Shown piece by piece: positions 13,802 through 55,834 of a DNA stretch of 64,000 bases (position 1 is the first letter of the stretch; every line of letters starts with the position of its first letter). The stretch is taken from assembly GCA_963770895.1 (NCBI GenBank), contig CAVYRF010000001.1, positions 384,001-448,000 on the forward strand, in the 5' to 3' direction. A model generated the notes under the pieces. The model was not told the DNA's origin. It saw only the letters and a list, made by a program, of their open reading frames with translations, and did not search any database. The stretch comes from an uncultured Acidobacteriota bacterium. Its GTDB lineage: Bacteria > Acidobacteriota > Thermoanaerobaculia > Multivoradales > UBA5704. A program made the position numbers and the translations under genes.

Positions 13802-13974
13802 CGAAAGATTACCTCGCTGGGGCGGCACAATGGTCCAGAAAAAGGCACCTGCCCCGATAAACCTGCCGATCACCTGTCTGTCAGACTTTGTAGTTTATGC
13901 TAGAACACCGACAGCTTAAGAGTCAACGGGAATTGGGGGCGATATCCGCCGCTCACAGGCTGGAGCGAAGTGCC

Positions 13975-27219: not shown

Positions 27220-28194
27220 ATGCGCCACTTTCGCGGAATATTGGTGACACTGATTGTCTTCGCTCTGCTCTCGATGACCGCACGGCGGGCGGCGGCCCAG
27301 AAAGGTCTCTACCAAGGCATCGACAGCTTGGCGGCCGCCATCCTTGAGAAAGTAACGCAGGAACAGAAACATAGAGTCGCCGTCCTTCCCTTCCACGAGA
27401 TGACCGGCCGCACGAGCGTTCTCGACTCTTATCTTTCGGAAGCCCTGCTGACCGAGCTGGTCCGCGCCGGCAAGGTCGAAGTTATCGAGCGCGCCATGCT
27501 CGATCGGTTGCTCGGCGAGATCAAGCTCGGCCAGACAGGGATCATTGACTCGGAGACGGCCAGGCGGGTCGGCAAGGTGGCGGGAGTCGACGCGATCGTA
27601 ACCGGCACAATTACGGAGCTGCGCACTTACCTTGCGGTGAACTGCCGCCTCATCGACACCCAGACGGGCCAGGTGTTTGCCGCGGCGCAAACCTGGATCA
27701 ACAAAGACAGCGACGTGATGGCCTTGCTGAACCAGCGCGACTCCGGCGGAGCGGAGCCGGCGACCGCTGAACGAGAACCGTCGAAAAAGACCGTGCCCAT
27801 TGCGCCGCCTCCGCTGCCACAAGCCGTCATCGAGCGCGATTGCATATTCCAATTAAAGGGCTGCACCCTCTTTGGTTCAACGCTCAAATGCGACATCCTC
27901 ATTACCGACAAGGGAGTCGACAGGACGCTAATCTTTGGCAAAAACGACCGCACAAGGATTATCGACGACAGCGGCCGAGAATATCGCGGCATTTCGTTTT
28001 CGATTGGCTCGCACAGCAACGACTACGCAGCACGAGGAAGTCTCACGACGGATGTTCCGATCAGGGGACAGCTTCAATTCGGCGGCTTGAGCGCGGCAGT
28101 ACGGAAGCTGTCGCTGCTTGAGTTTCACTACACCATGGACTACAACCATGGCATCTATAGCGGAGTAATCAGGTTTACAAACATCGCTCTCTGA
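27220..28194 (+). CDS. Secreted FlgO/CsgG-like domain protein
   Basis: Signal peptide; RVAVLPF...LSEALLTELV...VIERAMLDRLLGE...GKVAGVDAIVTGTI...RLIDTQTG. Confidence 0.8.
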   Translation: MRHFRGILVTLIVFALLSMTARRAAAQKGLYQGIDSLAAAILEKVTQEQKHRVAVLPFHEMTGRTSVLDSYLSEALLTELVRAGKVEVIERAMLDRLLGEIKLGQTGIIDSETARRVGKVAGVDAIVTGTITELRTYLAVNCRLIDTQTGQVFAAAQTWINKDSDVMALLNQRDSGGAEPATAEREPSKKTVPIAPPPLPQAVIERDCIFQLKGCTLFGSTLKCDILITDKGVDRTLIFGKNDRTRIIDDSGREYRGISFSIGSHSNDYAARGSLTTDVPIRGQLQFGGLSAAVRKLSLLEFHYTMDYNHGIYSGVIRFTNIAL

Positions 28195-28262
28195 GCGCGG
28201 CTCACCCCTCATGCCAAGCGAAGTAACCGTGCGGGGCGGCGGCGGCTTGTCCTTCGCCATCG

Positions 28263-29273
28263 TCAGCACGAGTAGACGAGCCGGGCGATCACGGCATCCC
28301 AGGCGCGGCTCACGGCCAGCAGGTGCGCGGGCTGCTGCTCGGCGGGGGTGATGCCGCTGCGCACGTGGTCGACCAACCGATGCAGCGCAACGCGATTGGC
28401 CTGGTCGCGCTGCCACCAGAAAAACGCCCCCACGGTCGGCGGGGGGGATGCCGGTGCCAGGTCCGTCCAGGCAGGCAAGGCATTCACGCCGGCGCTGGCC
28501 GCTCCCGTGGCGATGGCGCCTCCCAGCGCTGCGATGGCAGGGATCCAGAGGACCGGACCGCTGGCCTCGCCCAGGAAGAGTGTCCCTTCTTCGAAGGTCG
28601 CCGTGACGCGATGGCTCACCCAGGCGCCGGAGCCGTCGTCGTCGGCCGTATCGAGGCGCAGGCACTGCAACGTGATGGCCACGCCGGCGACAGAGCCGTC
28701 GATGGACAGCAGCGGCATGTCTGACGGCGCGGCGGCGTCCGTCGCGGCGCCATGCAACCGCAGCGCCGCGAGCCCGCCCAGTGCCCGGGCGATCAGGTCG
28801 AGGCCCGAGTAGAGAGCGCGCGAATTGGTGGCCAGCGACAGGTGGCGGAGGCGCGTGCGCTGGCGCAGGGCGGCACAATGGGCGAGGAACCGCTGCGGCA
28901 GCTCGCAGTCCCCGTAGTGGGAGTTGACGTGCAGGACGAGGCGCCGGCCGACCGCCTCACCGAGGAGCGCCGCGAGCGCCGCCTCGGTCAGCGGGTGCTC
29001 GATCAGCACGTGGGCGCCGCGGCGGAGGAAGCCCAGGGCCAGGTCGCAGCCGGCTTGGCCGCTCACCGCGACGCAGGCCAGATCGACGCTGCCCGCCGGC
29101 ACCTGCCGCGGCTCCCGATAGAGCGGCACACCGAGCTGGGAGGCCAGGTGCCGCGACCGCTCCGAGCCGCGGGCGAGCAGGCCGACGAGCCGCAGCCCGT
29201 CCGGGTGCGGCCAGGGGCTGAGGGCGCGCAGGTAGGCCGAGCCGTACAGCGTGCCGCAGAGGAGGACCCGCAT
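28263..29273 (-). CDS. Thiazolinyl imine reductase-like oxidoreductase (Irp3/YbtU/PchG type, Gfo/Idh/MocA fold)
   Basis: RVLLCGTLYG..YL, GLLARGSERSR.LA..LGVPLY, DLACVAV, HVLIEHPL, HVNSHY, LYSGLDL, GPVLW. Confidence 0.85.
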   Translation of the reverse strand: MRVLLCGTLYGSAYLRALSPWPHPDGLRLVGLLARGSERSRHLASQLGVPLYREPRQVPAGSVDLACVAVSGQAGCDLALGFLRRGAHVLIEHPLTEAALAALLGEAVGRRLVLHVNSHYGDCELPQRFLAHCAALRQRTRLRHLSLATNSRALYSGLDLIARALGGLAALRLHGAATDAAAPSDMPLLSIDGSVAGVAITLQCLRLDTADDDGSGAWVSHRVTATFEEGTLFLGEASGPVLWIPAIAALGGAIATGAASAGVNALPAWTDLAPASPPPTVGAFFWWQRDQANRVALHRLVDHVRSGITPAEQQPAHLLAVSRAWDAVIARLVYSC

Positions 29274-29296
29274 GGCGCTCTCGGTGGCGGTGCCGC

Positions 29297-30046
29297 TCAG
29301 GCCGGCAGGCCGGCACACGCCAGGTAGACCGCGTCCTCCTCGCCCGCCGGCAGGTCGAGGAGCCGGTTGACCTCCTGGTCCAGGAAGCCGCCGATCACCA
29401 CTGCCGCCAGGTCCATGGCGGTCGCGACCAGGCAGAGGTTCTGGCCGACGTGGCCGGCCTCGAGCCAGACGTAGCGGTAACCACGCTGGCCGTATTTCCA
29501 GGTGGTGCGCGCAAAGATCGCGGTCAGGCAGACAAACAGGTTGGCGTCGCGCAGCAGATCCTGCCCCAGCGCCAGGTTGGCAAGCTCGGCGTGCAGCGCG
29601 CCGCGCCGGCGCAGTGCGAGCTGGTGCGTCCAGGGGTCGTAATGGTAGAGCCCGTCGGCGAGCCCCTCCACGCGCTGCGCGGCGACGTAGAGCTCCAGCG
29701 GGTGCAGGGCGCCGGCCGAAGGGAACGGGCGGTCGTCCGCCACCGCGCCCTCGACCTGCAACATGCCCTTGACCCCGAATGCGGCGTGCAGCAGGCGACC
29801 CAGGGTCGCGAGCGGCAGCTCTCCCTGCCGGAAGTCGCGCCGCGAGCGCCGGCCGGCCAGGGTCTCGCCGAGCGGCCGCGGGAGAGCGAAGTCGCGGCCG
29901 GAAAGCTGCACGCGCTCGGCACCCAGGTAGAGGCGCCGCTGCCCAGGGCGATCCTGCCCGGCTGCGAGATCCGGCAGCTTGGCGCGGCTGTTCGAGGAGT
30001 TGAGGTGGTAGAGGCGGGCGAGATCCACTTCGCGGGTGCTGGGCAT
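29297..30046 (-). CDS. SagB/ThcOx-family FMN-dependent azoline dehydrogenase
   Basis: LYHLNS, RRSRRDF, PSAGALHPLE, WKYGQRGYRY, EAGHVGQN; alternative start at 30067 overlapping the YcaO stop. Confidence 0.93.
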   Translation of the reverse strand: MPSTREVDLARLYHLNSSNSRAKLPDLAAGQDRPGQRRLYLGAERVQLSGRDFALPRPLGETLAGRRSRRDFRQGELPLATLGRLLHAAFGVKGMLQVEGAVADDRPFPSAGALHPLELYVAAQRVEGLADGLYHYDPWTHQLALRRRGALHAELANLALGQDLLRDANLFVCLTAIFARTTWKYGQRGYRYVWLEAGHVGQNLCLVATAMDLAAVVIGGFLDQEVNRLLDLPAGEEDAVYLACAGLPA

Positions 30047-30066
30047 CGTCGCGTCCCTTCGGGGCA

Positions 30067-32547
30067 TCAGGCGAGGGGGTGCGGCTGGGGATTGACGCCG
30101 CGCGGGCCGAGCAGCGCCGCGAGGCGCGGGTTGGCCAGCCGCCGCAGGCGCTCGCCGAAGTGGATCGGCTGCACGTCGGTGCCTAGCGCCCGGGCGACCC
30201 GGAAGGGACTCAGCGCCACGTCCGGCGAGGTGACGTCGACGATCGCCACCCGCACCCCCGCCGCTGCCAGCCTCTCCGCGCAACCCGCCAGGGTCGGCGC
30301 GGCGGCGACCGGCAGGTCGGCCAGACGCAGCGGCTCGCCGCCGCCCACGCGCAACGTGTCGAGCAGCGGCAGGCGCTCGACAGGCGCGTAGTAGAGGGCA
30401 TGATCGTCGAGGCTCTGCACCTGGTCCGGCGAGGCGGGCGCGCGCTGGCCGCTGCGCATCAGCCCGGCGATGTAGGGGCCGACGTGCGCCAGTTCGAGCA
30501 GCGCCTTGCGCGCCGCCACCTGAGGGTCGACGTGGGTGGCCAGTGCCACCGCTGCGGCGGGCCAGCGCTCGCCGTCGCCCAGGCCCAGGCTCGCCACGGT
30601 CGGGATCCCCAGCCCGACGTCCAGGAGGTAGAGCTCCACGGCGACGCCGCGTTCGCCGAGCAGGCGCACGACCTCGGCCGCCGCCCCTTCGAATCCGCCG
30701 TCGTCGAAGCGCAGCGCGCGCCCGGGCAGCTGGCACAGCCAGCTCAGCATGAAGGCGTCCCGCTCCACCAGCTCGAAGAGAGCCCGCACTGCCGCGTCCT
30801 CGAGATCGCCGCCCGCCGCCAGGCCGTTGGAGGAGACCTGGCAGAAGAGCTCCTCGCGCGGCACCGCGAAGTTGAAGTAGGCCGTCAGCGCCGGCAGCCA
30901 GACCGCTTCCCGGTTGTCGATCCAGAAACCGCGCACCCAATGCTGGGGTCGGTCGGGGTCGAAGCGCGCGAACGGGAAGTCGGGTTCCTCGTAACGGCTC
31001 TCCTCGTAGAGGCAGAGCCGGCGGGGGTCGAGGGCCAGGTCGCCCAGCTCGTTGAACGACGCCACTTTCAGGTCCTGCTTGCGGTAGCGGGACGCCGAAT
31101 AGCGCTCGATCGCCTCGCCTGCCGCGCTCAACATCGCCTCGACCTCGGTGAGCCCCTTGCCCGAGCCGACCGGCGGGTCCGGGATGCCGCGCACCCGCCC
31201 ACCCTCCGTGTAGGCCGCGAGGATCGCCGTTGCCGTCCGCGGCAGCTCCGGCAAGGAGGGATCGGCCGGGTGCGCCTGGCCACAGGCCAGGGCGCGCAGG
31301 ACACCGGTGCGTGGATCGACCCATCCTGCGAGGAGCGCCTGCAGCTCCGCGACGCTCTGCACGCGCGCCAGGCTGCCCGAGGGGCCGGGCTGGCCCGGCC
31401 GGCCATCCTGGCCCGCCGCTGCCGGCGGTGCGACGGCGCCCCCCGGATTGCGGGAATCCTGCGCAGCCCCGCCGCAAACGTGGCACCAGGGCATCCTGAC
31501 CACCCCGTGGTGCGTGACGTCGGTTGTGATCAGGTTGTGGACGATGACGCGCCCTTGCAGGTGCGAGTGGGTGAAGGTGGTGAGCAGCTTCAGCGCTTCG
31601 ATGGCCATCAGCTGGCCGGCCACCGGCGCCATGGGCGCCAGGTAGCTGCGCGCGCGGCGCGCGGCCGGCGCTGCCACCAGCGACGCGTCGACCTCGTGCG
31701 CGACGAGAGGATGGTCGGCGGCGCCCAGGCGGCGCAGGCGGAAGCAATTCCAGCAGGCGGTCTGGCCGGGTACGACGGCCGGCCCGATCCAGGCTTCGAA
31801 GCCTTCGAGATGGCCGTACAACGAGCGCACGCCGACGCGGTGAGCGTACTCGGCCGCTTGCTGCAACCAGAACAGATCGTCGGCGGTGAGGCCGGTGACG
31901 ATCAGGTCCCAGGCGCCACCGGCCGGGCCGGGAGCGGCGGCAGGGCCGTCCCCGCGCAGGCATTCCAGGCTTTCCGCGCTCACCGCGCACCGGGGTGCGA
32001 CGTCGCGCACCAGCTCCCGTATCACCTCACGGCGCAAACGGCCGCGATGGTGCGGGCGCAGCAGGCGTACCGCCAGCAGGTCGTCGGGCTCCACGGTGGC
32101 ATCGTCCAGCAGGTGCAGCGCACCGACGCCGGCAGCGGCCAGCTCGCACGCGGCCACCGCTCCCCACGGCTCGAGCCCGACCAGTAAGACCCGGGCCTGG
32201 CGCAGGCCCTCGCCGGCCTCGGCGGGGGCGAGGCCGACGCCCTGGAAGAATCGCTCCTGGGCTGCGCCGGCGGCTTCGGGCTCACCGGCGGTATCCGCCG
32301 CCGATTCGACGAGCCCCTTCTGGCGCAGCAGCTCGAGAAGGCCGTGCACGCTTGCCGGCGAGTAGCCGGGCAAGGCTCCGGCCACCTCGTCGAGATCGCG
32401 GCTGCCGTCGAGCAGCGGCAGCAGCTGGCTGACAAAGACGCTGATATCGGGGCCGTCGAGCTGGAAGCTCCCGAGGTCCGACCGAAGGACCACCGCCTGC
32501 GCCATGGGCGTGATGCTGGCGGACGGGCTCAGGCGTACCTTGCTCAT
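30067..32547 (-). CDS. Fused RRE/E1(ThiF-like)-YcaO azoline-forming cyclodehydratase (TOMM C-D fusion)
   Basis: N-terminal RRE-like region (LLPLLDGSR..DEV...LLELLRQKGLVE); IGPAVVPGQTACWNC; PWCHVCG; GSGKG; EAIERY; SSNGLAAG; ELVERD; C-terminal PQPHPLA; alternative GTG start at 32559. Confidence 0.95.
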   Translation of the reverse strand: MSKVRLSPSASITPMAQAVVLRSDLGSFQLDGPDISVFVSQLLPLLDGSRDLDEVAGALPGYSPASVHGLLELLRQKGLVESAADTAGEPEAAGAAQERFFQGVGLAPAEAGEGLRQARVLLVGLEPWGAVAACELAAAGVGALHLLDDATVEPDDLLAVRLLRPHHRGRLRREVIRELVRDVAPRCAVSAESLECLRGDGPAAAPGPAGGAWDLIVTGLTADDLFWLQQAAEYAHRVGVRSLYGHLEGFEAWIGPAVVPGQTACWNCFRLRRLGAADHPLVAHEVDASLVAAPAARRARSYLAPMAPVAGQLMAIEALKLLTTFTHSHLQGRVIVHNLITTDVTHHGVVRMPWCHVCGGAAQDSRNPGGAVAPPAAAGQDGRPGQPGPSGSLARVQSVAELQALLAGWVDPRTGVLRALACGQAHPADPSLPELPRTATAILAAYTEGGRVRGIPDPPVGSGKGLTEVEAMLSAAGEAIERYSASRYRKQDLKVASFNELGDLALDPRRLCLYEESRYEEPDFPFARFDPDRPQHWVRGFWIDNREAVWLPALTAYFNFAVPREELFCQVSSNGLAAGGDLEDAAVRALFELVERDAFMLSWLCQLPGRALRFDDGGFEGAAAEVVRLLGERGVAVELYLLDVGLGIPTVASLGLGDGERWPAAAVALATHVDPQVAARKALLELAHVGPYIAGLMRSGQRAPASPDQVQSLDDHALYYAPVERLPLLDTLRVGGGEPLRLADLPVAAAPTLAGCAERLAAAGVRVAIVDVTSPDVALSPFRVARALGTDVQPIHFGERLRRLANPRLAALLGPRGVNPQPHPLA

Positions 32548-32618
32548 AGGCGGGCTCACATCCAGAATGCATTCCCCGGCCGGCGTGACCGGTAGGCTTC
32601 CTGGACCGTTTCGCGGCG

Positions 32619-32652
32619 GGCCCGCGCGCCGATCCAGGGTTGCGCGCGGGCC
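32619..32652 (-). terminator. GC-rich stem-loop between the precursor and cyclodehydratase genes (stabiliser or partial terminator)
   Basis: Perfect 11-bp inverted repeat GGCCCGCGCGC-N12-GCGCGCGGGCC; no U-tract on the transcribed strand. Confidence 0.55.
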
Positions 32653-32682
32653 GTGTTTCTCACCGTGAGGATACTTCGGACC

Positions 32683-33135
32683 TCACTTGGAGGACGAGCA
32701 TTGAGCGCACGGGGTGCACTGGGCGCACGGCGTACATGGGGTGCACTGGGCGGCGTACTGCGTACATGGGGTGCACTGGGCGGTGCACTGCGTACATGGA
32801 GTGCACTGGGTGGTGCACGGCGTACAAGCGGTGCACGGCGCGCACAGGGGGGTCGCATGGGCCTGGTAACAGGGCTGGCAATTGACGCAGTTCTGACACA
32901 GCGCTTGGATGCACGAATTGCAGAGAATGCAGGCGGGAGGAGTGCATGTGAGGCACGGTGGGTGACACGGCCAGCACGCCGCTACCCAACACGGGTGCGC
33001 GACCACGCAGGGCTTCTGGGTCGCCTGCGTCAACGCGTCGACCTTATGTTGCAGGCCGTTGACCGCAGCGTGCAGCTCGGTCAGGACAACATGAAGATCC
33101 TTGGGAGGGTTTGGATCGTGGGGCTCATCGGCCAT
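32683..33135 (-). CDS. Cys-rich RiPP (TOMM/LAP) precursor peptide, 150 aa, 28 Cys
   Basis: AGGAG RBS; 42-aa Cys-free leader with an amphipathic helix; core of C-x2/x3-C repeats; first gene of the YcaO operon. Confidence 0.88.
   Translation of the reverse strand: MADEPHDPNPPKDLHVVLTELHAAVNGLQHKVDALTQATQKPCVVAHPCWVAACWPCHPPCLTCTPPACILCNSCIQALCQNCVNCQPCYQAHATPLCAPCTACTPCTTQCTPCTQCTAQCTPCTQYAAQCTPCTPCAQCTPCAQCSSSK
32731..32826. repeat. 30-bp coding tandem repeat (3 copies plus a partial) in the precursor core
   Basis: Units start cgtaca at 32731, 32761, 32791 and 32821; they encode QYAAQCTPCT, QCTAQCTPCT and PCTTQCTPCT. Confidence 0.9.
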
Positions 33136-33282
33136 TCGATTTCTCCTGAACCACGGGTAAGTGGACGTCACACCAGCCACGCCGGCCGGGAAATGGGCAG
33201 CCTTGGGACAGTCGTATCGTGGGCTTCGGCTGTTGCCGCACAGCCGGCCCAAGGCGTTTAAAGAGCTGAAGGTAACAATCGG

Positions 33283-33311
33283 ATTATAGCAAAAGCAGCG
33301 ATACCGCTCAA
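33283..33311 (-). promoter_or_regulatory. Sigma70 promoter of the RiPP operon
   Basis: TTGAGC-N17-TATAAT with extended -10 (TGc) in an AT-rich patch, ~148 nt upstream of the precursor ATG. Confidence 0.8.
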
Positions 33312-33369
33312 GCGTGAACTTTGCAGCTTGTGGCCGGACGCACTCGGGAAAGTGCTCCTGGCGCCGCGG

Positions 33370-34836
33370 CTACGGCTTGGGCGGCAGCGATTGCGATGCG
33401 GCCTGGATGGCGCGCTCGAGCAGCTCGTCGCGGCCGGCGGCGATCCCCTGGCGGGTGGGAGCGACGGGGATCGTGGGGAGGATGCCGACGCCGTGGTGGC
33501 GCGAGCCGTCCTGTTTGTCGACCCGCATGCCCGTCCAATGGATGCGATAGCCACCGGGCAGGGTAAAGGGGTTCACGTCGCCGTTGGTGCCGGCGGTCGG
33601 GCCGCCGACGATCTCTCCCAGGTGGTAGTGCTCGACGATCCCCATGCAGCTCTCGGCGTAGCTGATGGCGCGGCCGTCGGTCACGAACACCAGGCGCGCC
33701 GTGAGCCGGACCGGGAGTGGCTCCAAGGTCCAGGCGCTTTCCCAATAGGTCACCCCCTGGCGGTCGGGGCGGATGGTGACCGGTATGCGCCAGCGCGCCG
33801 AGTGGAAGGTCTCGCCCACCAGGTGCTGCAGGAAGAGCGGCGAGAGCGTCGGATAGCCGCGAAAGTCGATCACGATGGCGCGCGCCTTCGCCAGGCGGTC
33901 GAGCGCCGCGGTGAAGTCCTGGTCCTGGATTCGCTGCACGTCGAGATACATCACGCCCGGAGCCACCTCGGCGATCGGGGCCGGGCGTCGCTCCGCGATC
34001 GCGCCGGGACCCTGGATCGGCAGCGAACGGTCGACGGTCACCGTCGCCGTCTCGCCGGTCAGGTGAGCGACCGACAGCCGCACGCTCGCCGACGGCCCCC
34101 TGAGCAGCCGCTCCACGGAGACGTACCGCAGAAACTGCGGCGTGGCAGCCGACGTCAGCTCCTGCTCGGCGGCAATCACCTCGGCTGCCGGACGGCCGTC
34201 GATCGCCGTCACGACGTCGCCGGGCTGGATGCCGGGGGCGTGCGCCGCATCGACCGCGGTCACCACCAGCTGCCCTTCGACCCAGCTCCAAGAGAGCGGC
34301 AGATGGAACGTCGCGGAGGTGGCGGAGATCAGGGTGACCAGGCCGTGGCCGTCGTGCAGCGCCGCGACCATCCGCCGCAAGGTATCGCGGAAAGCTACCG
34401 CGTCGCGATCAGTCGCGGCGCCACGCAAAGCCCGCCGCAGCTCCGCCGGCCAATCCGTCCCCGTCACGTCGAAATAGGGGTAGAAGTGCTGGAAGACATT
34501 CCAGGCCAGGATTACGTCGGCAAGCCGCGTCGCGCGATCGTCGCCCGAAGGGAAGAATCCGTCCGGCTTCTCGGGTGCCGGCGCCAGCACCCCGGCCGGC
34601 ACCTCCGGCAGCGTCCCCTTTTCATCGGCATAGAGCGTCAGCGGCACCGCCGCCGACACGCCGCCGCCCAGATCGACAGTCACCGGCTTGCCAGGCGGCG
34701 GCCAGTCGAGCGCCAGAGGCTTGCCATCCGGGTAGGTCTGCGGCCCCGTCACGTCGACGCGCTCGCTCAGGTAGAGCCCGCGCGCCACGTCCATGCCGGC
34801 ACCGACCCCGAAGTGGCGCCATCCCAGGACGCGCAC
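33370..34836 (-). CDS. S41-family peptidase with PDZ domain, apparently lacking its N-terminus
   Basis: WNVFQHFYPYF, L.DGHG, PDZ (PGDVVTAIDG), IDFRGYP, AISYAES, TAGTNG, HGVGILP; no signal peptide or clear start. Confidence 0.82.
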   Translation of the reverse strand: MRVLGWRHFGVGAGMDVARGLYLSERVDVTGPQTYPDGKPLALDWPPPGKPVTVDLGGGVSAAVPLTLYADEKGTLPEVPAGVLAPAPEKPDGFFPSGDDRATRLADVILAWNVFQHFYPYFDVTGTDWPAELRRALRGAATDRDAVAFRDTLRRMVAALHDGHGLVTLISATSATFHLPLSWSWVEGQLVVTAVDAAHAPGIQPGDVVTAIDGRPAAEVIAAEQELTSAATPQFLRYVSVERLLRGPSASVRLSVAHLTGETATVTVDRSLPIQGPGAIAERRPAPIAEVAPGVMYLDVQRIQDQDFTAALDRLAKARAIVIDFRGYPTLSPLFLQHLVGETFHSARWRIPVTIRPDRQGVTYWESAWTLEPLPVRLTARLVFVTDGRAISYAESCMGIVEHYHLGEIVGGPTAGTNGDVNPFTLPGGYRIHWTGMRVDKQDGSRHHGVGILPTIPVAPTRQGIAAGRDELLERAIQAASQSLPPKP

Positions 34837-35003
34837 CTTTCCCGGTGGCGCGGCCAGCAGCTCCGCAGGGATGGGTCTGGGCAGGTTCGCAGAGGTTGCG
34901 CCGGGGGTGGGGCCGATGGCGGGCCGGCTCCGCTTCGGGCTCCGCTGCCGCGGACGCGAGGCCGCCCCGCCGCCGACGCTATCTGAGCGGCGGGACCGAG
35001 CGC

Positions 35004-36134
35004 ATGGAGCAATACCTGTCGGCGGCGCGGGAGCATGTCTCCCGGCGCTGCGCGGCGGATCGCGAGTGGCTCTACCGCAAACCCTTCGACGCCAATGCCG
35101 GCAATGCTGCGTTCTTCGACGAGATGTACTCGGTGATGAACCTGCTGCGGGCGATGGCCATCACGCCCGGCGGCAGGGTGCTCGAAGTCGGCAGCGGCCC
35201 CGGATGGGTGACCGAGATCCTGCTGGCGTTGGGTTATGAGGTCCATGCCCTCGAACCCAGCGAGGAGATGATCGCGATCGCCGCCGAGCGCGTCGCGGCC
35301 GCCCGCGGTCATTTCCATCTCGGCGACAGCCCGCCCGTCACCTTCCACGCCGAACCGCTCGAAACCTGCTCGCTTCCCAGCGAAGCCTATGACGCGGTGC
35401 TCTTCCATGCCTCGCTGCACCATGTCGTGGACGAAGATCGCGGCCTGGCCCAGTGTTTCCGCCTGCTGCGGCCGGGCGGCGTCCTGGGAGCGAGCGAAGG
35501 GGCCTGGATCCCCGGCGACCGCAAGCTGGAAGCCCAGCTCGACCAGGAGATGCAGCGCTTCGGCACACTCGAAAACCCCTACACCGTGGAATACCTCGAC
35601 TTCCTGCTCCGCCGCCACGGCTTCGTGGACGTTCGGCGCTACTTTGCCGTCAACGGCCTGCTGCCAGAGGCGATGGGGCGCCGCCCGGTGGCCGCGGTCG
35701 CCACCTCCCGTCCCTGGGACGGCAACAACCTGACGGCCCGCAAGCCCTCGCTCCATCGCGCCACCACCCTCGACGGCGGCACCGCCCGAACGCGCGCCCG
35801 GATCACCGTATTGGCGACCACCCTCGATCGACCCACCGGCGCCGCCCACCTCCAGGTGCGCCTGGCCAACCGCGGCGACACGGCCTGGCTGGCAAACGCT
35901 CCGCGCGTGGGTTGGGTGGCCGTCGCCCTGCGCCAGGGCGAACCGGGCAGCCCCGATCTCGTCGAGGCGGGCGGCCGCCACCCCCTGCCGCGCACCCTGG
36001 CCCCCGGCGAACAGATCGTCCTCGACCTCGACTTCCGCCTGCCTCCCGCACGCGCCGCCGGCCCCTGGCTTCTCGATCTCGTGAACGAAGGCATGTTCTG
36101 GTTCTCCGAGCGCGGCAGCCCGCCGTCCCCGTGA
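35004..36134 (+). CDS. Class I SAM-dependent methyltransferase with C-terminal Ig-like domain
   Basis: VLEVGSGPGW, YDAVLFHASLHH, LRPGG; C-terminal VRLANRGDTAW...LAPGE...LDLVNEGMFWF. Confidence 0.88.
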   Translation: MEQYLSAAREHVSRRCAADREWLYRKPFDANAGNAAFFDEMYSVMNLLRAMAITPGGRVLEVGSGPGWVTEILLALGYEVHALEPSEEMIAIAAERVAAARGHFHLGDSPPVTFHAEPLETCSLPSEAYDAVLFHASLHHVVDEDRGLAQCFRLLRPGGVLGASEGAWIPGDRKLEAQLDQEMQRFGTLENPYTVEYLDFLLRRHGFVDVRRYFAVNGLLPEAMGRRPVAAVATSRPWDGNNLTARKPSLHRATTLDGGTARTRARITVLATTLDRPTGAAHLQVRLANRGDTAWLANAPRVGWVAVALRQGEPGSPDLVEAGGRHPLPRTLAPGEQIVLDLDFRLPPARAAGPWLLDLVNEGMFWFSERGSPPSP

Positions 36135-36170: not shown

Positions 36171-38048
36171 TCAGCTACAGGGCAACGCCGCTGTGTCCTG
36201 CACCGGTGCCGCGGCGGTGCCGTCCGTGTTGGCGTAGGACTTGTGAGCGCCGGTCTGCAGGTCGGTCACCACGGCGGTGAAGCCGACGTTGGTGCCGGCG
36301 GCGTAGAACAGCCAGTATTTCTGGTTGACGCTGCAGCCGTCGATGACCTTGATCAGCATCTCCGGGTTGTCGGCGCTGAAGAACCAGAAGAGACCGCCCT
36401 GCGCAACGCCCAGGCTGTTGAGGGCGATCGCGTGGCCGTTGCCCGCGCTGCCGCCGCCCTCCGCGGTCTTGTAGCTGGCCGTGATCTGAAAACGGCCATT
36501 GATGCACAGAGTGGTGCCGTTGGCGGTACAGGTGGCGGCCTCGGGCAAGGCATCGATCGCGGTCGGCGGGGGGCTCTGCTCGGCGCTCGCGGGGCGCCGG
36601 TCGCCCGCTTCGAGGTGGGCGCTGGTCGCCGCGGCGACGTCGCCAGCGGCGGCGTCTGGAGCAGCGGGCGCGGCGTCTCCCTGGGCGTCGCACGTGAAGG
36701 CGGCGGTGTCCTGTTGCGGCGGCGCGGCGGTCTCGTCGGTGTTCTGGTAGGTCTTGGTGCGAGGAGTCTTGGTGTCCTTGACGCTGACGGTGAAGCCGAC
36801 GTTGGTGGTCGCCGAGTAGAACAGCCAGAAATGTTGGTTGACCGAGCAGCCGTTGATGACCTTGATCAGCATCTCCGGGTTGTCGGCGTCAAAGAACCAG
36901 AACAGGCCACCTTCGGTGACGCCCAGGCTGGCGAGCGGGATCGCCTGGCCGTTGCCGGCGAGCCCGCCGCTCTGCGCCGTCTTGTAGGCGACGCCGATCT
37001 GCCAGCGCTTGTCGCCCGGCTTGTCGTCGATGCACAGGGTTGTCGCCGTCGCCACGCAAGCCGCGTTGTGGGGCAGTTCCACACGGCCCACCTTGTTGCC
37101 GCTCACCTCGGTGAACCACATGTTGCCGTCGGGCCCGGCGGTGATGCCGCCCGGACTGGAGTGCGCCGTGGGCACCGGATACTCCGTGACCTTGCCGGCG
37201 GTGGTCACCATGCCGATCTGATTGGCCTCGAACTCGGTGAACCAGAGGTTGCCATCGGGTCCGGCGGTGATGAAAACGCTACCCGCCGTCGAGGTCGGCA
37301 GCGGAAACTCGGTGATCACGCCCGCCGGGGTGATGCGCCCTAGGTTGTTGCCGGAGAGCTCGGTGAACCAGACATTGCCGTCGGGGCCGAGGGTGATCCC
37401 GGTTGGCGCGGGTTGGGCGCCGGCGTCGGGTAGCGCGAACTCGTGGAAGACGCCGGCCGTCGTGAGCCGCCCGACCTTGCCGGTGTTCTGCTCGGTGAAC
37501 CAGAGGTTGCCGTCGGCTCCCACCGTGATGCCGGCGGGTCCGGCGCCGCCGGTCGGCACGGCGAACTCCTTGCACGCGCCGGCGGTCGTGATGCGTCCGA
37601 TCTTGCTACCGTTGAGCTCGGTGAACCAGAGGTTGCCGTCGGGGCCGGCCACGATGTCCGCCGGTCCGGCCTGAGAGGTGGGTACGTCGAAGAGCGTCAC
37701 GGCGCCGGCGGTCGTGATGCGTCCGATCTGATTGCCTTCGTAGGCCGCGAACCACAGATTGCCGTCGGGCCCCGCCGTGATGCCGCCCGAAACCGGGCTC
37801 GACAGCGCGCTCGCGACCGGAAACTGATTGACCACCGTGCCGGCGGTGGTGATGCGGCCGACGGCGTTGCCCTCGAGCTCGGTGAACCAGAGGTCGCCGT
37901 CCGGACCGGCGGCGATGCCGGCCGGCGACACGCCGCTCGTCGGTACCGGAAACTCGTTGATCGTGATGGCGCCGGCGGGCGCCGCCGCGAGGGTCGCCAG
38001 GATGACTGCGAACACCGCCGCACGGATGTCGTCGCTGAAGGTTGCCAT
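36171..38048 (-). CDS. Secreted Vgb (virginiamycin B lyase)-like beta-propeller with two tandem lineage-type C-terminal domains
   Basis: Signal peptide; 7 repeats of GITAGPDGNLWFTE..GNxIGRIT; 2x TLCI...GLFWFF.ADNPEMLIKVI.GCSVNQ..WLFY. Confidence 0.88.
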   Translation of the reverse strand: MATFSDDIRAAVFAVILATLAAAPAGAITINEFPVPTSGVSPAGIAAGPDGDLWFTELEGNAVGRITTAGTVVNQFPVASALSSPVSGGITAGPDGNLWFAAYEGNQIGRITTAGAVTLFDVPTSQAGPADIVAGPDGNLWFTELNGSKIGRITTAGACKEFAVPTGGAGPAGITVGADGNLWFTEQNTGKVGRLTTAGVFHEFALPDAGAQPAPTGITLGPDGNVWFTELSGNNLGRITPAGVITEFPLPTSTAGSVFITAGPDGNLWFTEFEANQIGMVTTAGKVTEYPVPTAHSSPGGITAGPDGNMWFTEVSGNKVGRVELPHNAACVATATTLCIDDKPGDKRWQIGVAYKTAQSGGLAGNGQAIPLASLGVTEGGLFWFFDADNPEMLIKVINGCSVNQHFWLFYSATTNVGFTVSVKDTKTPRTKTYQNTDETAAPPQQDTAAFTCDAQGDAAPAAPDAAAGDVAAATSAHLEAGDRRPASAEQSPPPTAIDALPEAATCTANGTTLCINGRFQITASYKTAEGGGSAGNGHAIALNSLGVAQGGLFWFFSADNPEMLIKVIDGCSVNQKYWLFYAAGTNVGFTAVVTDLQTGAHKSYANTDGTAAAPVQDTAALPCS

Positions 38049-38319
38049 AGCGCTCGTCTCCAAGGTCCTCGTGGAGGGGAATACCTGGTTGGCGACCTCG
38101 AGAGTTCGCCGCGGTTGACGCGAAGCAACGTCAAGGTAACACACGGTGCCCGGCCCGGCGTGGCGAGGCAAAGGGTGCGCCTGCCGGCTGCGGTGATGGC
38201 GGCGAGCTGGCCGGTTTTGAAGCGGCTTCAGGACCGGAGGCTCCGCCAGCAGACGCTGCCCGCCAGCTGGTGGCCAGGTGGGCGTCGGGATCGGTGGGCT
38301 CTCGGCCTACGCTTGCGCT

Positions 38320-41300
38320 TCAGGGGCTCGCGCCGGCAGCTGGCGCCGGCGCCTGGGCCGCCTGGGCCGCGGAGATCTTGATGGTGGAGAAGGGCGAGAG
38401 GGTGAGCGTGCCGGGGTCGGCGAAGAACCAGCGCACCACCTGGCCGGCGAGGTTCGACATGCCGGCCGGGCGCGCGGCGCTGGCACGCAGGCGGGCCAGG
38501 CGCTCGACGGGATGGTCGACCGGCACGGCGTTGCCGGCGTCGTCGACGGCGAAGCCGCCGACCGCCTCGGCGAGGTCGGCGAGCGCGGTGCTGTCGGCGG
38601 AGGAGGTCTCGGGCTGGTCCCAGACGCGCACGGTGCCGTCGTTGTCGACGGTCATGACGCGCGAGCCGTCGGGGCTGAAGGTGGCTCTGGTCACCCAGCC
38701 CTGGGGGGGCGCGTGCCAGAGCGGTTCGGCGAGCTGGTGGCAGGAATCGACGTCCCAGACCTGGGCGAAGCCGTCGGCCGAGCGGGCGAGGAATCGCTGG
38801 CCGTCGGCGCTGAGCTCGGCGACGAAAGGGGTTTCGGCGACCGGGGGATAGACCTGGGAGGCGAGTTGAATGCGGCAGAGGAGCCGCCCGTTCGCGATCT
38901 CCCGCACCTCGACCTCGCCACGCCCGAGCGTGGCGATCATTCGCGTCGCGTCCTGGCTGAAGCTCAGGGTCTGGAACCCGCTGTCGAACGGCACGGAGCT
39001 GCCCGTCGGCTTGCCGCTTGGCGCGAAGAACCTGAGCACATGGTCGGCAGCGAGGATGGCGATGAGCCTGGCATGGGGGCTCCAGAGTCCCACGATTGGG
39101 TTCGCCAGCTCGACGTGGCCGACCATGCGGCCCGTTTGCGTTGCCCACACCTGGAGTCCGGACTTCGCCCAGGTGAGGACAAAGCGGCCCTCGTCGTCGA
39201 TCTCGGGTCTTTTGTCGTCAAGTTGGCGTGTCGCCGGGATCTCTTTGCCGCTGCGCGCATCCCAGCTTTGGATCTGCCAACCGACCGCCCACCAGGGCCC
39301 CAGCGCCAGGAGCCGCTCGCCGTCCGCGCTCACCTGAGCCGAGGACAGCTCTCGCACCTGAGGCACCTTGATCACCGCGCTGAGGCTGCGACCCGTCCTG
39401 GCATCCCAGGCCTGCAGGGTGTTCCGCTGCGGGTCGGCCGCGACCACGGCCAGCCGTCCATCCGCCAGCAGGTTGGCCGACAGCACCGGCAGCCCGCCAG
39501 GAGACACGACGCTGCTTTCCCCGGTCGCGAGGTCCCAGAGCCGCACGGTTCCATCCTGGGTGACGGCGATCGCCTCGGCGCCCCGGCTGCCGAACAGGGC
39601 GTAGCGGACCGGCTGCGCCAGGAGCTGCGGGCGGGCGTATCGGTCGGGGCGCATGTCCCAGATCTCGGCCGTTCCGTCATCCGCGGCGCTCACCGCCTTG
39701 CGTCCGTCGCGGCTCCAGCCGACGACGTTGACGGGACCCTTGTGCCGCAGGGCTTGCATCGCAGTTTCGCCGGTGCGGGCATCCCACAGCCACGCGGCGG
39801 AGTCGCGCGAGCCGGTCAGCACCCATCGGCCGTCCGGGCTGAAGTGCGCCGTGGACACCAGCCTGTCGTGCGGGATCGGCCGCGGCGGCGACCCGGGGGC
39901 GTCGAGGTTCCACAAACGCACGACGCGGTCGGCGCAGACGGTGAGCAGCGTGTGGTCGTCGGGACTGAACTCGGCCCAGGTGACAGGCGCCTTGTGATCG
40001 TGAGTGGAAACCACTCGCAGCGTCGTGAGGTCCGCGATCCGCACCGTACCCTGGGCGCCGACGGTGAGCAGGCGGTCGCCCCGGTGGTTGAAGGCCACCA
40101 GGGTCGCATCCTTGCCGAGAGACGAGAGCTCCCCCCGGGCGGCGCCGGCGCGCCGATCGAACAGGAGCGGTGCTTCGGCGGTCGGCAGGACGACGAGCAG
40201 CGGGGGCTCGCCGATCACGGTATTGCCGGTGGCGGCGAACCGCTTGCCGTCCGGGCTCAAGGCCGCAACATGGTAGGGAGGGGTCAGACGCTCCTGGGTT
40301 CGAGCATCCCATAGCGTGGTGCCTTCGTACGAGCTGATCATGAGCCGGTCGCCGCGCGAGCTCCACGCCACGCCGTCCACGGGAGGGTAGACCTTCATCT
40401 CGCGACCGAGGGGGGCGCCGCTCCTGCCGTCCCAGATCCGTGCCACGCCATCCTGGCAGCCGGTGAGCACCCGGTCGCCGTCGGGGCTGAACGCGGCCGA
40501 GGTCGCCGCGCCGCCATGGCGCATCACGGCCAGGGGGGCGCCGTCGCGCACCCGCCAGAGTCGCGCGGTGCCGTCAAGCGAGGCCGTCAGCAGGCGCTCC
40601 CCGTCCGGGCTGAGCTCGGCGGCGGTGACCGCCCGGTCGTGCCGCACCCTCAGCACCGGCAGCGGCCAGCTCTCGTGCAGCAGGATGCCGAGGGCGCGGT
40701 GGCGGGCGTCGTCGCTGTCCTCTGGGCGCGACCTCATGATCGAGGCGAGGTAGGCCAGAGCCTGCGCGGCGCGGCCTTTTTCGATCAGGTTTCCCGCCGA
40801 ATCGAAGAGCGCCCGCTCGGCGCGCCGCTGGGCGCTATCCGCGGCTTTCTCAGCCGCCTGGCTGTGCCGCCACAGGACGGCGGCGGCGATCGCCAAAACG
40901 ACGGTGGCGACCAGCACCCAGCCGAGCACCAGCGCCAGCTTGCGGCTGCGCGCGAGCAGGCGGCGCGTCTCGCGCTCGCGCTCGCCGGCCTGCTGCGCCA
41001 GGCGGTCGGCCTCGCGCGCGTCTTCTTCCGCCTGGCGGCGGGCCTCGCGCTGGCGGCGCAGCTCGCGGCTCTCGCCGATGACCTCGGTCAGCACGTCGTG
41101 GGTGAGCTCGACCCAGTCGACGCCGTGGCGCTCCTCGATGCGCAGCAGGCGCCGGTCGCGCAGGGTGAGCAGGGCGGCGGCCGTGACGCCCGGCACGGCG
41201 ACGGCGTTGTCCCACGCGACGCTGTCGCGGTAGCCGGAGCGGGTGAGCAGACGGTCCTCGATGAAGGTGCGCATCTCGGGGGTGAGCCCGGCCAGGCTGG

Positions 41301-42429
41301 CCTCGTAGAAGCGCGTCAGGATCTCCTTCCACGAACCGGAGAGCAGGTCGAAGGTGATGGTGGCCTCGCCGCGGTCCCGCCGCCGGTTGTTGAGCTCGCG
41401 GCAGACCAGGCTGAGCAGGGTGGGGTCGACCGTGAGCTCGGCGAGCGGCGGCGGGCCGTCCGCGCCGGCCTGCCGCCCGGCAAGGCCCTGGCGTTCCGCC
41501 GCCGCGCCACCGGCGCCGGCCGTCTCCTCATGCTCCGCCGCCGCGGCGCCCGCCCCGTCCGCACCGCCCGCCTGGGCCCGGCCGGCGCCCGAGACGAAGC
41601 GCACGACCTTCTCCGCCACCTCCGGCGCGATGAGGTGGCCGCCGGCGCAGGTCACGACGCGCAGCGCCGCTTCGCCGGTCATGTGCCGCAGCGCCAGCCG
41701 GCTGGCTCCGAGCGAGCGCATGCGGGCGCGCAGGGTGTCGAGGTCGGCCAGGAAGTCCTGGCGCAGGCAGACCAGGATCTTGTAGTCGTGCCGTTCGGGC
41801 GAGAAGTCCGCGGCGAGCGCCGGCGCGGCGTCGAGGCGCGCCTTGACCGCCGCGGGCGGGCGGCCCTCGACCAGGTCGGCGAGCTCGGCGAGGAACGCCT
41901 CGCGGCCGGGGTCCTTTCTGCCCAGGGTGAAGATCTCCTCGAACTGGTCGAAGACCAGCAGCGGCACGACGATGCGGTTGGCCGCGCTCCAGAAGTTGGC
42001 GCCCGCGCGGTGGAGCGACTCCCAGAGGGTCTCGCCGGGCGGCAACGGCGGCGCCTCGACCCGCGCGTCCGCCGCCGCGGCAAGGATCGCGTCCCGCACC
42101 TGGTCGACCAGCCCCCGCTCGGCGGGGCCGCGCTCGCCCGCCCAGGCCAGCCGGATGGCGACCGGCAGCACCTCCTGCCGGCGCAGCCGCGGGAAGAGGC
42201 CGGCCTGGAGGAGCGAGGTCTTGCCCAGCCCGGAACGGCCGTAGACCACGGTGGCACGGGTCGATTCCCGCATCACCGTGCGGCGCAGCTCCTCGATCTC
42301 GTCTTCGCGGCCGAAGAAGAAGGCCTGGTCCTGCTCGCGGAACGACGGCAGCCCCGGCCAGGGATTGTCGCGATCGACCTGCCCGCCCTGGGCGGCAAGG
42401 GACGCCGGCGCCGGCGCGGCCTCCGTCAC
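38320..42429 (-). CDS. nSTAND1-like NTPase, TM helix, WD40-repeat protein
   Basis: NPWPGL.SF...FFGRE, Walker A GRSGLGKTS, Walker B LVFDQFEE, ELTHD, one TM, many FSPDG...TAS.DGT.R.W repeats; GTG overlaps the TIR stop. Confidence 0.9.
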   Translation of the reverse strand: MTEAAPAPASLAAQGGQVDRDNPWPGLPSFREQDQAFFFGREDEIEELRRTVMRESTRATVVYGRSGLGKTSLLQAGLFPRLRRQEVLPVAIRLAWAGERGPAERGLVDQVRDAILAAAADARVEAPPLPPGETLWESLHRAGANFWSAANRIVVPLLVFDQFEEIFTLGRKDPGREAFLAELADLVEGRPPAAVKARLDAAPALAADFSPERHDYKILVCLRQDFLADLDTLRARMRSLGASRLALRHMTGEAALRVVTCAGGHLIAPEVAEKVVRFVSGAGRAQAGGADGAGAAAAEHEETAGAGGAAAERQGLAGRQAGADGPPPLAELTVDPTLLSLVCRELNNRRRDRGEATITFDLLSGSWKEILTRFYEASLAGLTPEMRTFIEDRLLTRSGYRDSVAWDNAVAVPGVTAAALLTLRDRRLLRIEERHGVDWVELTHDVLTEVIGESRELRRQREARRQAEEDAREADRLAQQAGERERETRRLLARSRKLALVLGWVLVATVVLAIAAAVLWRHSQAAEKAADSAQRRAERALFDSAGNLIEKGRAAQALAYLASIMRSRPEDSDDARHRALGILLHESWPLPVLRVRHDRAVTAAELSPDGERLLTASLDGTARLWRVRDGAPLAVMRHGGAATSAAFSPDGDRVLTGCQDGVARIWDGRSGAPLGREMKVYPPVDGVAWSSRGDRLMISSYEGTTLWDARTQERLTPPYHVAALSPDGKRFAATGNTVIGEPPLLVVLPTAEAPLLFDRRAGAARGELSSLGKDATLVAFNHRGDRLLTVGAQGTVRIADLTTLRVVSTHDHKAPVTWAEFSPDDHTLLTVCADRVVRLWNLDAPGSPPRPIPHDRLVSTAHFSPDGRWVLTGSRDSAAWLWDARTGETAMQALRHKGPVNVVGWSRDGRKAVSAADDGTAEIWDMRPDRYARPQLLAQPVRYALFGSRGAEAIAVTQDGTVRLWDLATGESSVVSPGGLPVLSANLLADGRLAVVAADPQRNTLQAWDARTGRSLSAVIKVPQVRELSSAQVSADGERLLALGPWWAVGWQIQSWDARSGKEIPATRQLDDKRPEIDDEGRFVLTWAKSGLQVWATQTGRMVGHVELANPIVGLWSPHARLIAILAADHVLRFFAPSGKPTGSSVPFDSGFQTLSFSQDATRMIATLGRGEVEVREIANGRLLCRIQLASQVYPPVAETPFVAELSADGQRFLARSADGFAQVWDVDSCHQLAEPLWHAPPQGWVTRATFSPDGSRVMTVDNDGTVRVWDQPETSSADSTALADLAEAVGGFAVDDAGNAVPVDHPVERLARLRASAARPAGMSNLAGQVVRWFFADPGTLTLSPFSTIKISAAQAAQAPAPAAGASP

Positions 42430-48475: not shown

Positions 48476-48478
48476 GGG

Positions 48479-50638: not shown

Positions 50639-50685
50639 GGCGGGAAAAGACGGTATCATGAAAATTATGAGGTGCAAAAGTTAGC

Positions 50686-53190: not shown

Positions 53191-53234
53191 TTAAGCAATT
53201 CCAGATGCTACGCTAGCGGTCAGGGAGAACCACG

Positions 53235-55664: not shown

Positions 55665-55796
55665 GCCCGGTCCAGCCGGGTCTCGCAGCGATCCATCCTC
55701 CCCCAGGTGGCAACGGCCTGGGGGACGACGCCCCCTCCCCCTAAATCTCCAGCGCCAGTAGCGCGAGCGCCGCCGCGGGACGGTGTCTGATCGCTG

Positions 55797-55825
55797 TTGA
55801 CTTCCTATAGATATTTTGTTTTATT
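55797..55825 (+). promoter_or_regulatory. Possible promoter of the GT-GT-carbamoyltransferase-NRPS operon
   Basis: TTGACT-N17-TTTATT with upstream TG in an AT-rich patch, 9 nt before the ATG. Confidence 0.4.
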
Positions 55826-55834
55826 CACATACGC

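Follow-up and report, generated by a model that had tools for sequence, protein, structure and literature searches.

Two kinds of biosynthetic system come closest to the locus described here. In thiazole/oxazole-modified microcin (TOMM) and linear azol(in)e-containing peptide (LAP) pathways, which belong to the peptides made by ribosomes and modified after translation (RiPPs), a cyclodehydratase and a SagB-type dehydrogenase work on a precursor made of a leader and a Cys-rich core, and the best-studied LAP substrates have Gly-flanked sites. In the nonribosomal peptide synthetase (NRPS) pathways of the siderophores yersiniabactin and pyochelin, thiazoline rings are the substrates of dedicated reductases (Irp3/YbtU and PchG, respectively). 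The sorangibactin report (PMC10127202) places an azoline oxidase, SrbH, and a thiazoline reductase, SrbI, in one NRPS pathway, and passages in two reviews treat thiazolidines as NRPS features only. Here, we describe an open reading frame (ORF) at 32683-33135 on the reverse strand of a 64,000-nucleotide stretch of DNA (hereafter the window) from an uncultured Acidobacteriota bacterium of the class Thermoanaerobaculia (GCA_963770895.1, contig CAVYRF010000001.1, positions 384,001 to 448,000). Based on our analyses, we consider this ORF likely to be the precursor (A) gene in a self-contained RiPP cassette of four genes and of the TOMM/LAP kind, whose product would be a poly-thiazol(in)e chain of about 100 residues, probably with thiazolidines.

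A poly-cysteine precursor and its three enzymes

The ORF heads four genes that lie on a single strand and encode, in order, the precursor, a fused cyclodehydratase with a RiPP recognition element (RRE), an E1-like part and a YcaO domain, a SagB-type dehydrogenase, and a thiazolinyl imine reductase of the Irp3/PchG type. The features of the cassette, in window coordinates, are:

33010..33135, reverse strand: precursor leader, residues 1-42, motif MADE..PKDLxIxxTELHSA..L..KLDK, predicted helical (alignments and AlphaFold2)
32683..33009, reverse strand: precursor core, residues 43-150, then the stop codon (translation and composition)
32711..32836, no strand assigned: 30-bp tandem repeat, 4.3 copies, encoding the C-T-P-C / C-T-Q-C decapeptide repeats in the latter half of the core (Tandem Repeats Finder)
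30067..32547, reverse strand: fused cyclodehydratase with RRE-like (about 32299-32538), E1/ThiF-like and YcaO (about 30196-31164) parts (Pfam, NCBIfam and profile)
29297..30067, reverse strand: SagB-type flavin mononucleotide (FMN) dehydrogenase, predicted to turn azolines into azoles (TIGR03605, 155.6 bits, cut-off 78.4; PF00881, 96 bits)
28263..29273, reverse strand: thiazolinyl imine (imide) reductase homologue of the Irp3/YbtU/PchG family (TIGR01761, PF01408 and PF21390 Irp3-like_C)

Translation of the ORF gives 150 residues and a stop codon, and it bears out every descriptive statement of an initial annotation, made from the letters of the DNA alone, that had singled out an unusual precursor here. 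The first Cys is residue 43, which splits the product into a leader of 42 residues and a core of 108. Of the core residues, 28 are Cys, 15 Thr, 15 Pro, 14 Ala and 11 Gln, with 19 Thr/Ser in total, and the six residues reported as missing from it (Gly, Asp, Glu, Arg, Phe and Met) are all absent on our count. The precursor is of low complexity with a Cys content of about 26%, CxxC makes up 18 of the 27 Cys-to-Cys spacings of the core, and the tandem repeat of the second half has 86% matches and a score of 168. The helical leader that the annotation had proposed was also recovered: with an alignment of nine sequences, AlphaFold2 places a helix over residues 14-39, in a block with predicted local distance difference test (pLDDT) values of 74-90, and residues 41-150 have values below 50, so that the core is predicted to be disordered. 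A confident helix followed by a low-pLDDT core is the pattern expected of a leader-plus-core precursor. The precursor (P0001) matched no Pfam and no NCBIfam family at E <= 0.01, and with them no curated RiPP precursor model; a protein-language-model atlas gave no usable match.

The same annotation took the peptide for a RiPP precursor destined for a YcaO enzyme, and the gene does lie directly upstream of the fused RRE/E1-like/YcaO cyclodehydratase and SagB. The cyclodehydratase, for which a GTG at 32559 is an alternative start, scores 228 bits with PF02624 (YcaO) and 63 bits with PF00899 (ThiF), 235.5 bits with the SagD-family model TIGR03604 (cut-off 219.25) and 85.3 bits with the leader-peptide-binding domain model TIGR03882 (cut-off 36.9). 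A four-sequence profile compared with solved structures matched LynD (4v1t, 8.4e-32), TruD (4bs9, 2e-31) and MusD (7u58, 2.1e-28), and the E1-like part still matches ThiF/MoeB/MccB. Residues 4-83 match PbtF (8t19, an 86-residue chain), the RRE domain through which a thiopeptide F protein recognises the leader, at 5.6e-7. The C-terminal NPxPHP (NPQPHP in the window; P-x-P-x-P) is invariant in four of four sequences, and a C-terminal PxPxP is a hallmark of azoline-forming YcaO enzymes. A complex prediction with residues 1-440 of the cyclodehydratase and residues 1-48 of the precursor, both given as alignments, scored 0.00 and has no weight either way. The ATG of SagB at 30067 overlaps the stop codon of the cyclodehydratase (TGATG), in frame, and a second ATG at 30046 agrees with the length of the homologues; the protein carries a Lys-Tyr pair.

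The fourth gene lends unexpected support to another idea of the annotation, its analogy with the ring chemistry of pyochelin and yersiniabactin. Its product is a full-length Irp3/YbtU homologue that exceeds the TIGR01761 cut-off (205.9 bits against 188.8), and its profile matches the Irp3/YbtU structures 4gmf and 4gmg at E of about 1e-37 over the full length (profile positions 2-319). The His of an EHP motif and the Tyr of an HY motif, invariant in all four cassette reductases compared, align with positions 101 and 128 of Irp3 (4gmf_A, counted from the alignment), presumably the proposed catalytic acids His101 and Tyr128. On this homology, the enzyme is predicted to reduce thiazoline to thiazolidine with NADPH. 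It is the single TIGR01761 match in its genome, and that genome is the only one with a match among 401 sampled evenly across the phylum; we therefore assign the reductase to the cassette and not to a siderophore NRPS. Its identity to NRPS-type relatives is about 33-37%; 16 reductase relatives (P0011-P0026) have identities of 41-83%. A search for longer, fused forms gave two matches, both reductase-methyltransferase fusions, and neither was a fusion to YcaO or SagB. The partners that such a reductase has in an NRPS line are missing: there is no NRPS, Cy domain or carrier protein in the cassette at any of the seven loci described below. An NRPS at 60568-64000 in the window was rejected as a partner, since in six other genomes the cassette has no neighbour of that kind; a pattern search for HHxxxDG or DxxxxDxxS in its C domain matched neither motif and carries no information.

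Conservation of the cassette and of its first gene

Searching by tblastn with the window proteins, we found the four genes with unchanged order and orientation at all seven loci with sufficient flank, namely the window and six loci from Acidobacteriota/Thermoanaerobaculia genomes (L006, L007, L008, L019, L020 and L021). Homologues occurring mostly without YcaO had been named in advance as the result that would speak against a YcaO substrate. In all seven loci with readable flanks YcaO is immediately downstream of the precursor gene, a count that leaves six metagenome-only homologues (P0003-P0008) outside. A 1.8-kb metagenome fragment (L011) carries the C-terminus of YcaO, SagB and the N-terminus of the reductase. 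Relative to the window, identity is 59-60% for the cyclodehydratase, 61% for SagB and 47-49% for the reductase at L006-L008, and 52-53%, 50-53% and 41-46%, respectively, at L019-L021. This parallel fall in the three enzymes is what co-inheritance as one module predicts. The flanks of the cassette are unrelated between lineages: they hold deoxyhypusine-synthase-like and dehydrogenase genes at L006 and L008, an acyl-CoA-ligase-type gene at L019, amine oxidase and disulfide oxidoreductase genes at L020, and HEAT and zinc-ribbon genes at L021. Among the flanking ORFs scanned (8 for L006-L008, 10 for L019-L021, 8 around the window cassette and 10 elsewhere in the window), no transporter, leader protease or immunity gene is common to the loci, and no metal-uptake, efflux, metal-resistance or metal-regulator gene is conserved beside the cassette.

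Several neighbours in the window were considered as further members of the cassette and rejected, having no tblastn match in the six other full loci. They are an S41/PDZ peptidase (33370-34836), a methyltransferase (34980-36134), and the CsgG-like, M1-peptidase, Vgb-lyase-like and WD40 genes. The peptidase lies directly upstream of the precursor on the same (reverse) strand, with the methyltransferase, of class I and S-adenosylmethionine (SAM)-dependent, divergent beside it on the forward strand; the two could be a strain-specific leader protease and tailoring enzyme. The methyltransferase and the methyltransferase part of one of the reductase fusions (P0034) have only the generic SAM motif in common (E 0.002).

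By the searches that we made, the precursors appear to form a very rare family of giant poly-Cys peptides of the Thermoanaerobaculia. An index of 5.8 billion proteins gave three matches, and an exhaustive read of 1.84 billion representative proteins gave five at E <= 0.001, one of which (P0009), a low-complexity repeat protein without the leader, was removed from the family. A pattern scan of one genome for each of 185,579 species found three loci, L006-L008, in metagenome-assembled genomes of Acidobacteriota and Thermoanaerobaculia. A profile search of 401 genomes of the class gave six matches, of which five are real: the genome of the window, G036 (the L006 locus), G460, G475 and G786. The sixth, in G636 (L022), is a spurious 70-residue Cys-rich ORF (CTPCTRRCTPC...; 9870-10082, reverse strand; E 4.9e-4) without a cassette, and was dropped from the counts; as an ORF of an unrelated genome, it illustrates that GC-rich repeats can mimic the precursor core. 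Among 61 close relatives, two have the precursor.

Rules of the family were drawn from 13 precursors, namely that of the window, six metagenome proteins and those of six genomic loci, with 1359 core residues in all. Every one of the 13 has the common leader MADE..PKDLxIxxTE[LI][HQ]SA..[LI]..K[LVI][DE], followed by a variable linker. The cores range from 46 to 154 residues and from 14 to 40 Cys, and consist of 26% Cys (range 24-30%), 14% Pro and 12% Gln. Asp and Glu together account for 6 of the 1359 residues and His for 40; there are 14 Lys and Arg, of which L020 has two and each of the other 12 cores one. CxxC represents 193 of 346 Cys spacings, and the residue before Cys is Pro in 127 of 359 cases, Gln in 80, Leu in 48 and Gly in none. 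These counts divide a statement of the initial annotation, which had stressed a core with neither Gly nor acidic residues: near-absence of acidic residues is a trait of the family, and absence of Gly is a peculiarity of the window member, since most other members contain Gly (0-10 per core). Lineages have expanded different repeat units, CTPCTQCTAQ in the window and PCYHTGPQPLCQ-type and APCVQPCV-type units elsewhere. Composition and ring spacing, and not a specific sequence, appear to be conserved in the cores.

The signals around the gene are:

33142..33147, reverse strand: ribosome-binding site (RBS) AGGAGA, 6 nt before the precursor ATG (sequence reading)
33283..33311, reverse strand: promoter-like TTGAGC-17-TATAAT with an upstream TG, about 148 nt upstream of the precursor ATG (10 of 12 hexamer positions; a consensus match only)
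32619..32652, reverse strand: perfect G+C stem-loop of 11 bp in the 135-nt spacer between precursor and cyclodehydratase, with no T tract after it (minimum free energy, MFE, fold)
28185..28197, reverse strand: terminator-like hairpin with a 5-bp stem and a T-rich tail, about 66 nt past the reductase stop, candidate end of the operon (pattern scan)

The RBS is invariant in the four upstream regions that could be aligned (window, L006, L007 and L008). Two promoter-like sites were found in the 5.6 kb from 28000 to 33600, with a mean of 0.2 in 50 shuffles. Across the 23 leader codons compared among L006-L008, there are 18 synonymous and 2 non-synonymous changes, a ratio that points to purifying selection on the leader. 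Because of the RBS, the promoter-like site, the mainly synonymous divergence of the leader and the homologues that keep both leader and Cys-rich core, we read the ORF as a real gene and not as a shadow frame of GC-rich DNA, and it is very probably the true precursor of this cassette.

Rfam gave no match at E <= 1 in 32400-33500, and so no riboswitch upstream of the precursor; no inverted repeat was found in 33100-33400, and so no operator-like element. The upstream regions of the precursors at L006 (about 9806-9900), L007 and L008 have several short GACAYGTC-type palindromes, for example CTGACATGTCACCGACACGTCAGC, which are candidate regulator sites and are missing from the upstream region in the window. 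All four loci have in common a GGCCGGCGTGGC element about 30 nt before the RBS. The 161-nt spacer region has an MFE of -73 kcal/mol (z-score -2.56 against shuffles), and its hairpin possibly stabilises or attenuates the transcript; the spacers of homologous loci, of about 24-80 nt, are too short for such a hairpin. The terminator-like site is weak, since three were found where 1.6 are expected.

Parts of the stretch occur in six sequencing runs of DNA or unknown type, from three studies, five of them labelled soil metagenome; no RNA run was among the runs that matched. Four runs were compared with the window: over the precursor, X1 and X3 gave contigs nearly identical to it, and X2 and X6 gave fragments only; the coding region of the precursor is nearly identical in X1. 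No insertion or deletion in the repeat region was seen among the run contigs compared, of which no single piece spanned the whole stretch. In three runs (two labelled soil metagenome), contigs of related strains differ at many positions in 33282-33348, immediately upstream of the promoter-like -10 box and within it (33285 being one).

Possible pathway and competing explanations

The pathway that we propose would start with recognition of the conserved helical leader by the N-terminal RRE-like domain of the cyclodehydratase. Judging from its family, the YcaO domain would then use ATP to cyclodehydrate many of the 28 core Cys, and possibly some of the 19 Thr/Ser, to azolines. Part of these could be oxidised to azoles by the SagB-type flavoprotein, and other thiazolines reduced to thiazolidines by the Irp3/PchG-type reductase with NAD(P)H. 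The product would be a nearly uncharged chain of about 100 residues with roughly one ring per three residues, the rings differing in oxidation state. It may remain associated with the cell, since no export, protease or immunity gene is linked to the cassette; it would then stay inside, perhaps with its leader attached, or else depend on unlinked host functions. The parts of this scheme are not equally secure: there is good reason to expect that the core Cys are heterocyclised, and we lean only slightly towards the reductase forming thiazolidines on the peptide.

Several points weigh against this scheme. All of the modifications are deduced from homology and gene order. The reductases of the TIGR01761 family act, according to PMC10127202, on carrier-bound thiazolinyl intermediates of NRPS lines. 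In the window, an NRPS cluster lies about 27 kb from the cassette, and the reductase could have a role there in trans in this one genome. We know of no characterised member of the TIGR01761 family that takes anything other than carrier-protein-bound NRPS intermediates, and of no precedent for a free ribosomal peptide as its substrate. That an oxidase and a reductase would compete for the same azolines may be a sign that one of the two has another substrate. The extent of core processing is uncertain because Gly never precedes Cys in this family, unlike the Gly-flanked sites of LAP substrates. Lastly, a bioactive LAP that is secreted would usually come with a conserved transporter, protease or immunity gene, which is lacking here.

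This last point bears on the first of the rival explanations, that of an ordinary LAP, secreted as an antibiotic or cytolysin of the microcin B17, streptolysin S or heterocycloanthracin type, whose Cys would become thiazoles, whose leader removal and export would be left to unlinked host functions, and in which the reductase would have a minor or site-specific part. The cassette has the set that defines LAPs (cyclodehydratase, SagB, and a precursor with leader and Cys-rich core), and the very hydrophobic, nearly uncharged core would suit membrane activity. The LAPs characterised so far are, to our knowledge, all antimicrobial or cytolytic, and in the window, though only there, the S41/PDZ peptidase stands directly upstream on the same strand. 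However, none of the six other full loci gave a tblastn match to that peptidase, the seven loci share no ABC transporter, immunity or protease gene along with the cassette, and the reductase is strictly co-inherited. Moreover, the cores evolve by lineage-specific repeat expansion that keeps composition and not sequence, unlike a ligand shaped for one target. We therefore hold this explanation as a possible but doubtful one, and we regard as equally tentative the view, reached by analogy, that the product is a ribosomal metal chelator or buffer, in which spaced thiazoline, thiazolidine and thiazole nitrogens would bind Cu, Zn, Fe or other soft metals together with any unmodified thiols, much as the thiazoline/thiazolidine rings in pyochelin and yersiniabactin bind metal, in the cell or at its surface. 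A cassette reductase of a type tied so far to thiazolidine metallophores (Irp3/YbtU; sorangibactin SrbI, PMC10127202) would fit such a role, as would a Cys content of 24-30% with dominant CxxC (193 of 346 spacings) and selection for composition and repeat number over sequence; the missing export and protease genes would fit an intracellular buffer. Yet no metal-uptake, efflux or sensor gene is conserved beside the cassette, neither an operator-like inverted repeat nor a riboswitch lies upstream, acidic and His ligands are rare (6 Asp/Glu and 40 His per 1359 core residues), and heterocyclisation would remove the thiolates, which are the best soft-metal ligands.

A further explanation, very improbable in our view, dispenses with modification altogether: the ORF would be a metallothionein-like or disulfide-rich protein merely beside a YcaO operon, or a non-coding shadow of GC-rich repeats. 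High-GC genomes do yield long spurious ORFs, as the weak match at L022 exemplifies, and the precursor has neither a Pfam or NCBIfam family nor a usable match in the protein atlas. An invariant RBS and a leader with 18 synonymous against 2 non-synonymous changes are not what this explanation predicts, and nor is a gene that stands immediately upstream of the same three enzymes at seven of seven loci, in differing neighbourhoods, and that has leader/core architecture next to an RRE-bearing cyclodehydratase. As for the biological role of a modified peptide, metal or soft-metal chelation or buffering is suggested by the type of reductase, by the density and regular spacing of the Cys and by an evolution like that of a polymer, and an antimicrobial or membrane-active LAP by the precedent of other LAPs and by the uncharged, hydrophobic core. 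Each of these roles is conceivable without being probable, and a role of some other kind is a somewhat stronger candidate, still short of a favoured one. The most specific form of the metal hypothesis, which we think unlikely, would be a ribosomal counterpart of pyochelin and yersiniabactin chemistry: dozens of thiazolines made by YcaO, a subset turned into thiazolidines by the reductase and others oxidised by SagB, giving a polymer-like N,S-chelator retained as a metal buffer or store. A cell-retained chelator with many rings would explain both the missing exporter, protease and immunity genes and the cores that evolve by repeat expansion.

Should the reductase act on the peptide, as the proposed pathway has it, thiazolidine formation would be found for the first time in a ribosomal pathway. 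A tailoring step of the non-ribosomal siderophore assembly lines would thereby enter RiPP chemistry, with a free-standing imine reductase for genetically encoded substrates that would be useful in peptide engineering. The full-text literature that we covered describes neither a thiazoline reductase nor a thiazolidine product in a YcaO/RiPP pathway; subscription-only papers and supplements were outside its scope, and an earlier description is possible. The precursors would also rank among the largest and most Cys-dense azole-peptide substrates known, with 14-40 potential rings. With the cassette, the soil Acidobacteriota (class Thermoanaerobaculia), from which few natural products have been characterised, gain a defined RiPP family, and the four genes of this minimal cassette are directly amenable to heterologous expression. 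The cassette also raises a testable idea, that of a gene-encoded poly-heterocycle as a metal binder.

Window context and comparison with known systems

Beyond the cassette, the window has a separate biosynthetic region, at 46772-64000, that looks like a cluster for a glycosylated or carbamoylated lipopeptide. It comprises an ABC ATPase (46772-48475), a penicillin-amidase-family acylase (48479-50677), a MacB/FtsX-type permease (53235-55664), an EryCIII-like glycosyltransferase (55835-57166), a carbamoyltransferase (58527-60593) and the NRPS at 60568-64000, which opens with AMP-binding, carrier and condensation domains and continues beyond the edge of the window. Three further proteins are encoded on the reverse strand, the last two by very large genes. 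The first (36171-38171; 666 residues) has a propeller of the virginiamycin-B-lyase family (388 bits) followed by two tandem, Cys-bounded domains of about 110 residues and unassigned family, both with GGLFWFF..DNPEMLIKVI.GCSVNQ. The second (38320-42654; 1444 residues) reads as WD40-like repeats in the C-terminal two-thirds of its translation, and the third (7085-13873; 2262 residues) has TIG/Ig-like/PKD/TSP3 repeats and a PGAP1-like hydrolase segment.

Set beside the systems with which we began, the cassette has everything that sequence alone can reveal of a TOMM/LAP locus: a YcaO cyclodehydratase, an E1-like/RRE domain, SagB, and next to them a precursor whose leader precedes a Cys/Ser/Thr-rich core. 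As in TOMM/LAP loci, the leader-plus-core precursor is directly upstream of the E1-like/RRE and YcaO cyclodehydratase and of SagB, with TIGR03604, TIGR03882 and TIGR03605 all above their cut-offs. Unlike the cores of known LAPs, that of the cassette is far longer and richer in Cys (108 residues with 28 Cys; 46-154 residues with 14-40 Cys in the family), and Cys is never preceded by Gly but by Pro or Gln in 207 of 359 cases. Its leader fits no known precursor model, a reductase of the Irp3/PchG type is fixed in it, and no transporter, immunity or protease gene is conserved with it.

The fused heterocyclases of the cyanobactins (LynD, TruD and MusD; PatD) are the best matches among solved structures and have the same order of leader-binding, E1-like and YcaO parts in a single chain. 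The L-T-E-L-H-S-A segment of the leader resembles what we take to be the cyanobactin recognition sequence, L-A-E-L-S-E-E. In contrast to cyanobactins, no PatA/PatG-type subtilisin protease or macrocyclase is present among the cassette and flanking genes scanned, and the precursor does not have short cassette cores flanked by recognition sequences. With metallothioneins, the precursor has in common a Cys content of about 26%, low complexity and no stable predicted fold. It differs from them in lacking a family match, in the near-absence of Lys, Asp and Glu, and in its conserved leader and obligatory link to modification enzymes; metallothioneins show CxC/CC clusters, and CxxC dominates in the precursor family. 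By the models tested, the peptide does not qualify as a metallothionein or as a precursor of the cyanobactin, NHLP/Nif11 or heterocycloanthracin type, nor does it match a SagA-like or thiopeptide model.

With the NRPS siderophore reductases (Irp3/YbtU of yersiniabactin, PchG of pyochelin and SrbI of sorangibactin), the cassette reductase has in common homology over the full length, the Irp3-like C-terminal domain and the aligned His and Tyr, and the combination of an azoline oxidase with this type of reductase is also found in sorangibactin (PMC10127202). What differs is that all seven loci have a cassette without an NRPS, and the presumed substrate is a ribosomal peptide. In conclusion, our comparison sets the cassette apart from known TOMM/LAP systems by a new leader family, an exceptionally long, Gly-poor poly-Cys core whose Cys are flanked by Pro and Gln, the absence of accessory genes, and an obligatory thiazoline reductase. 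This siderophore-type reductase, of a type known so far only from siderophore pathways, is the unusual element of the cassette.

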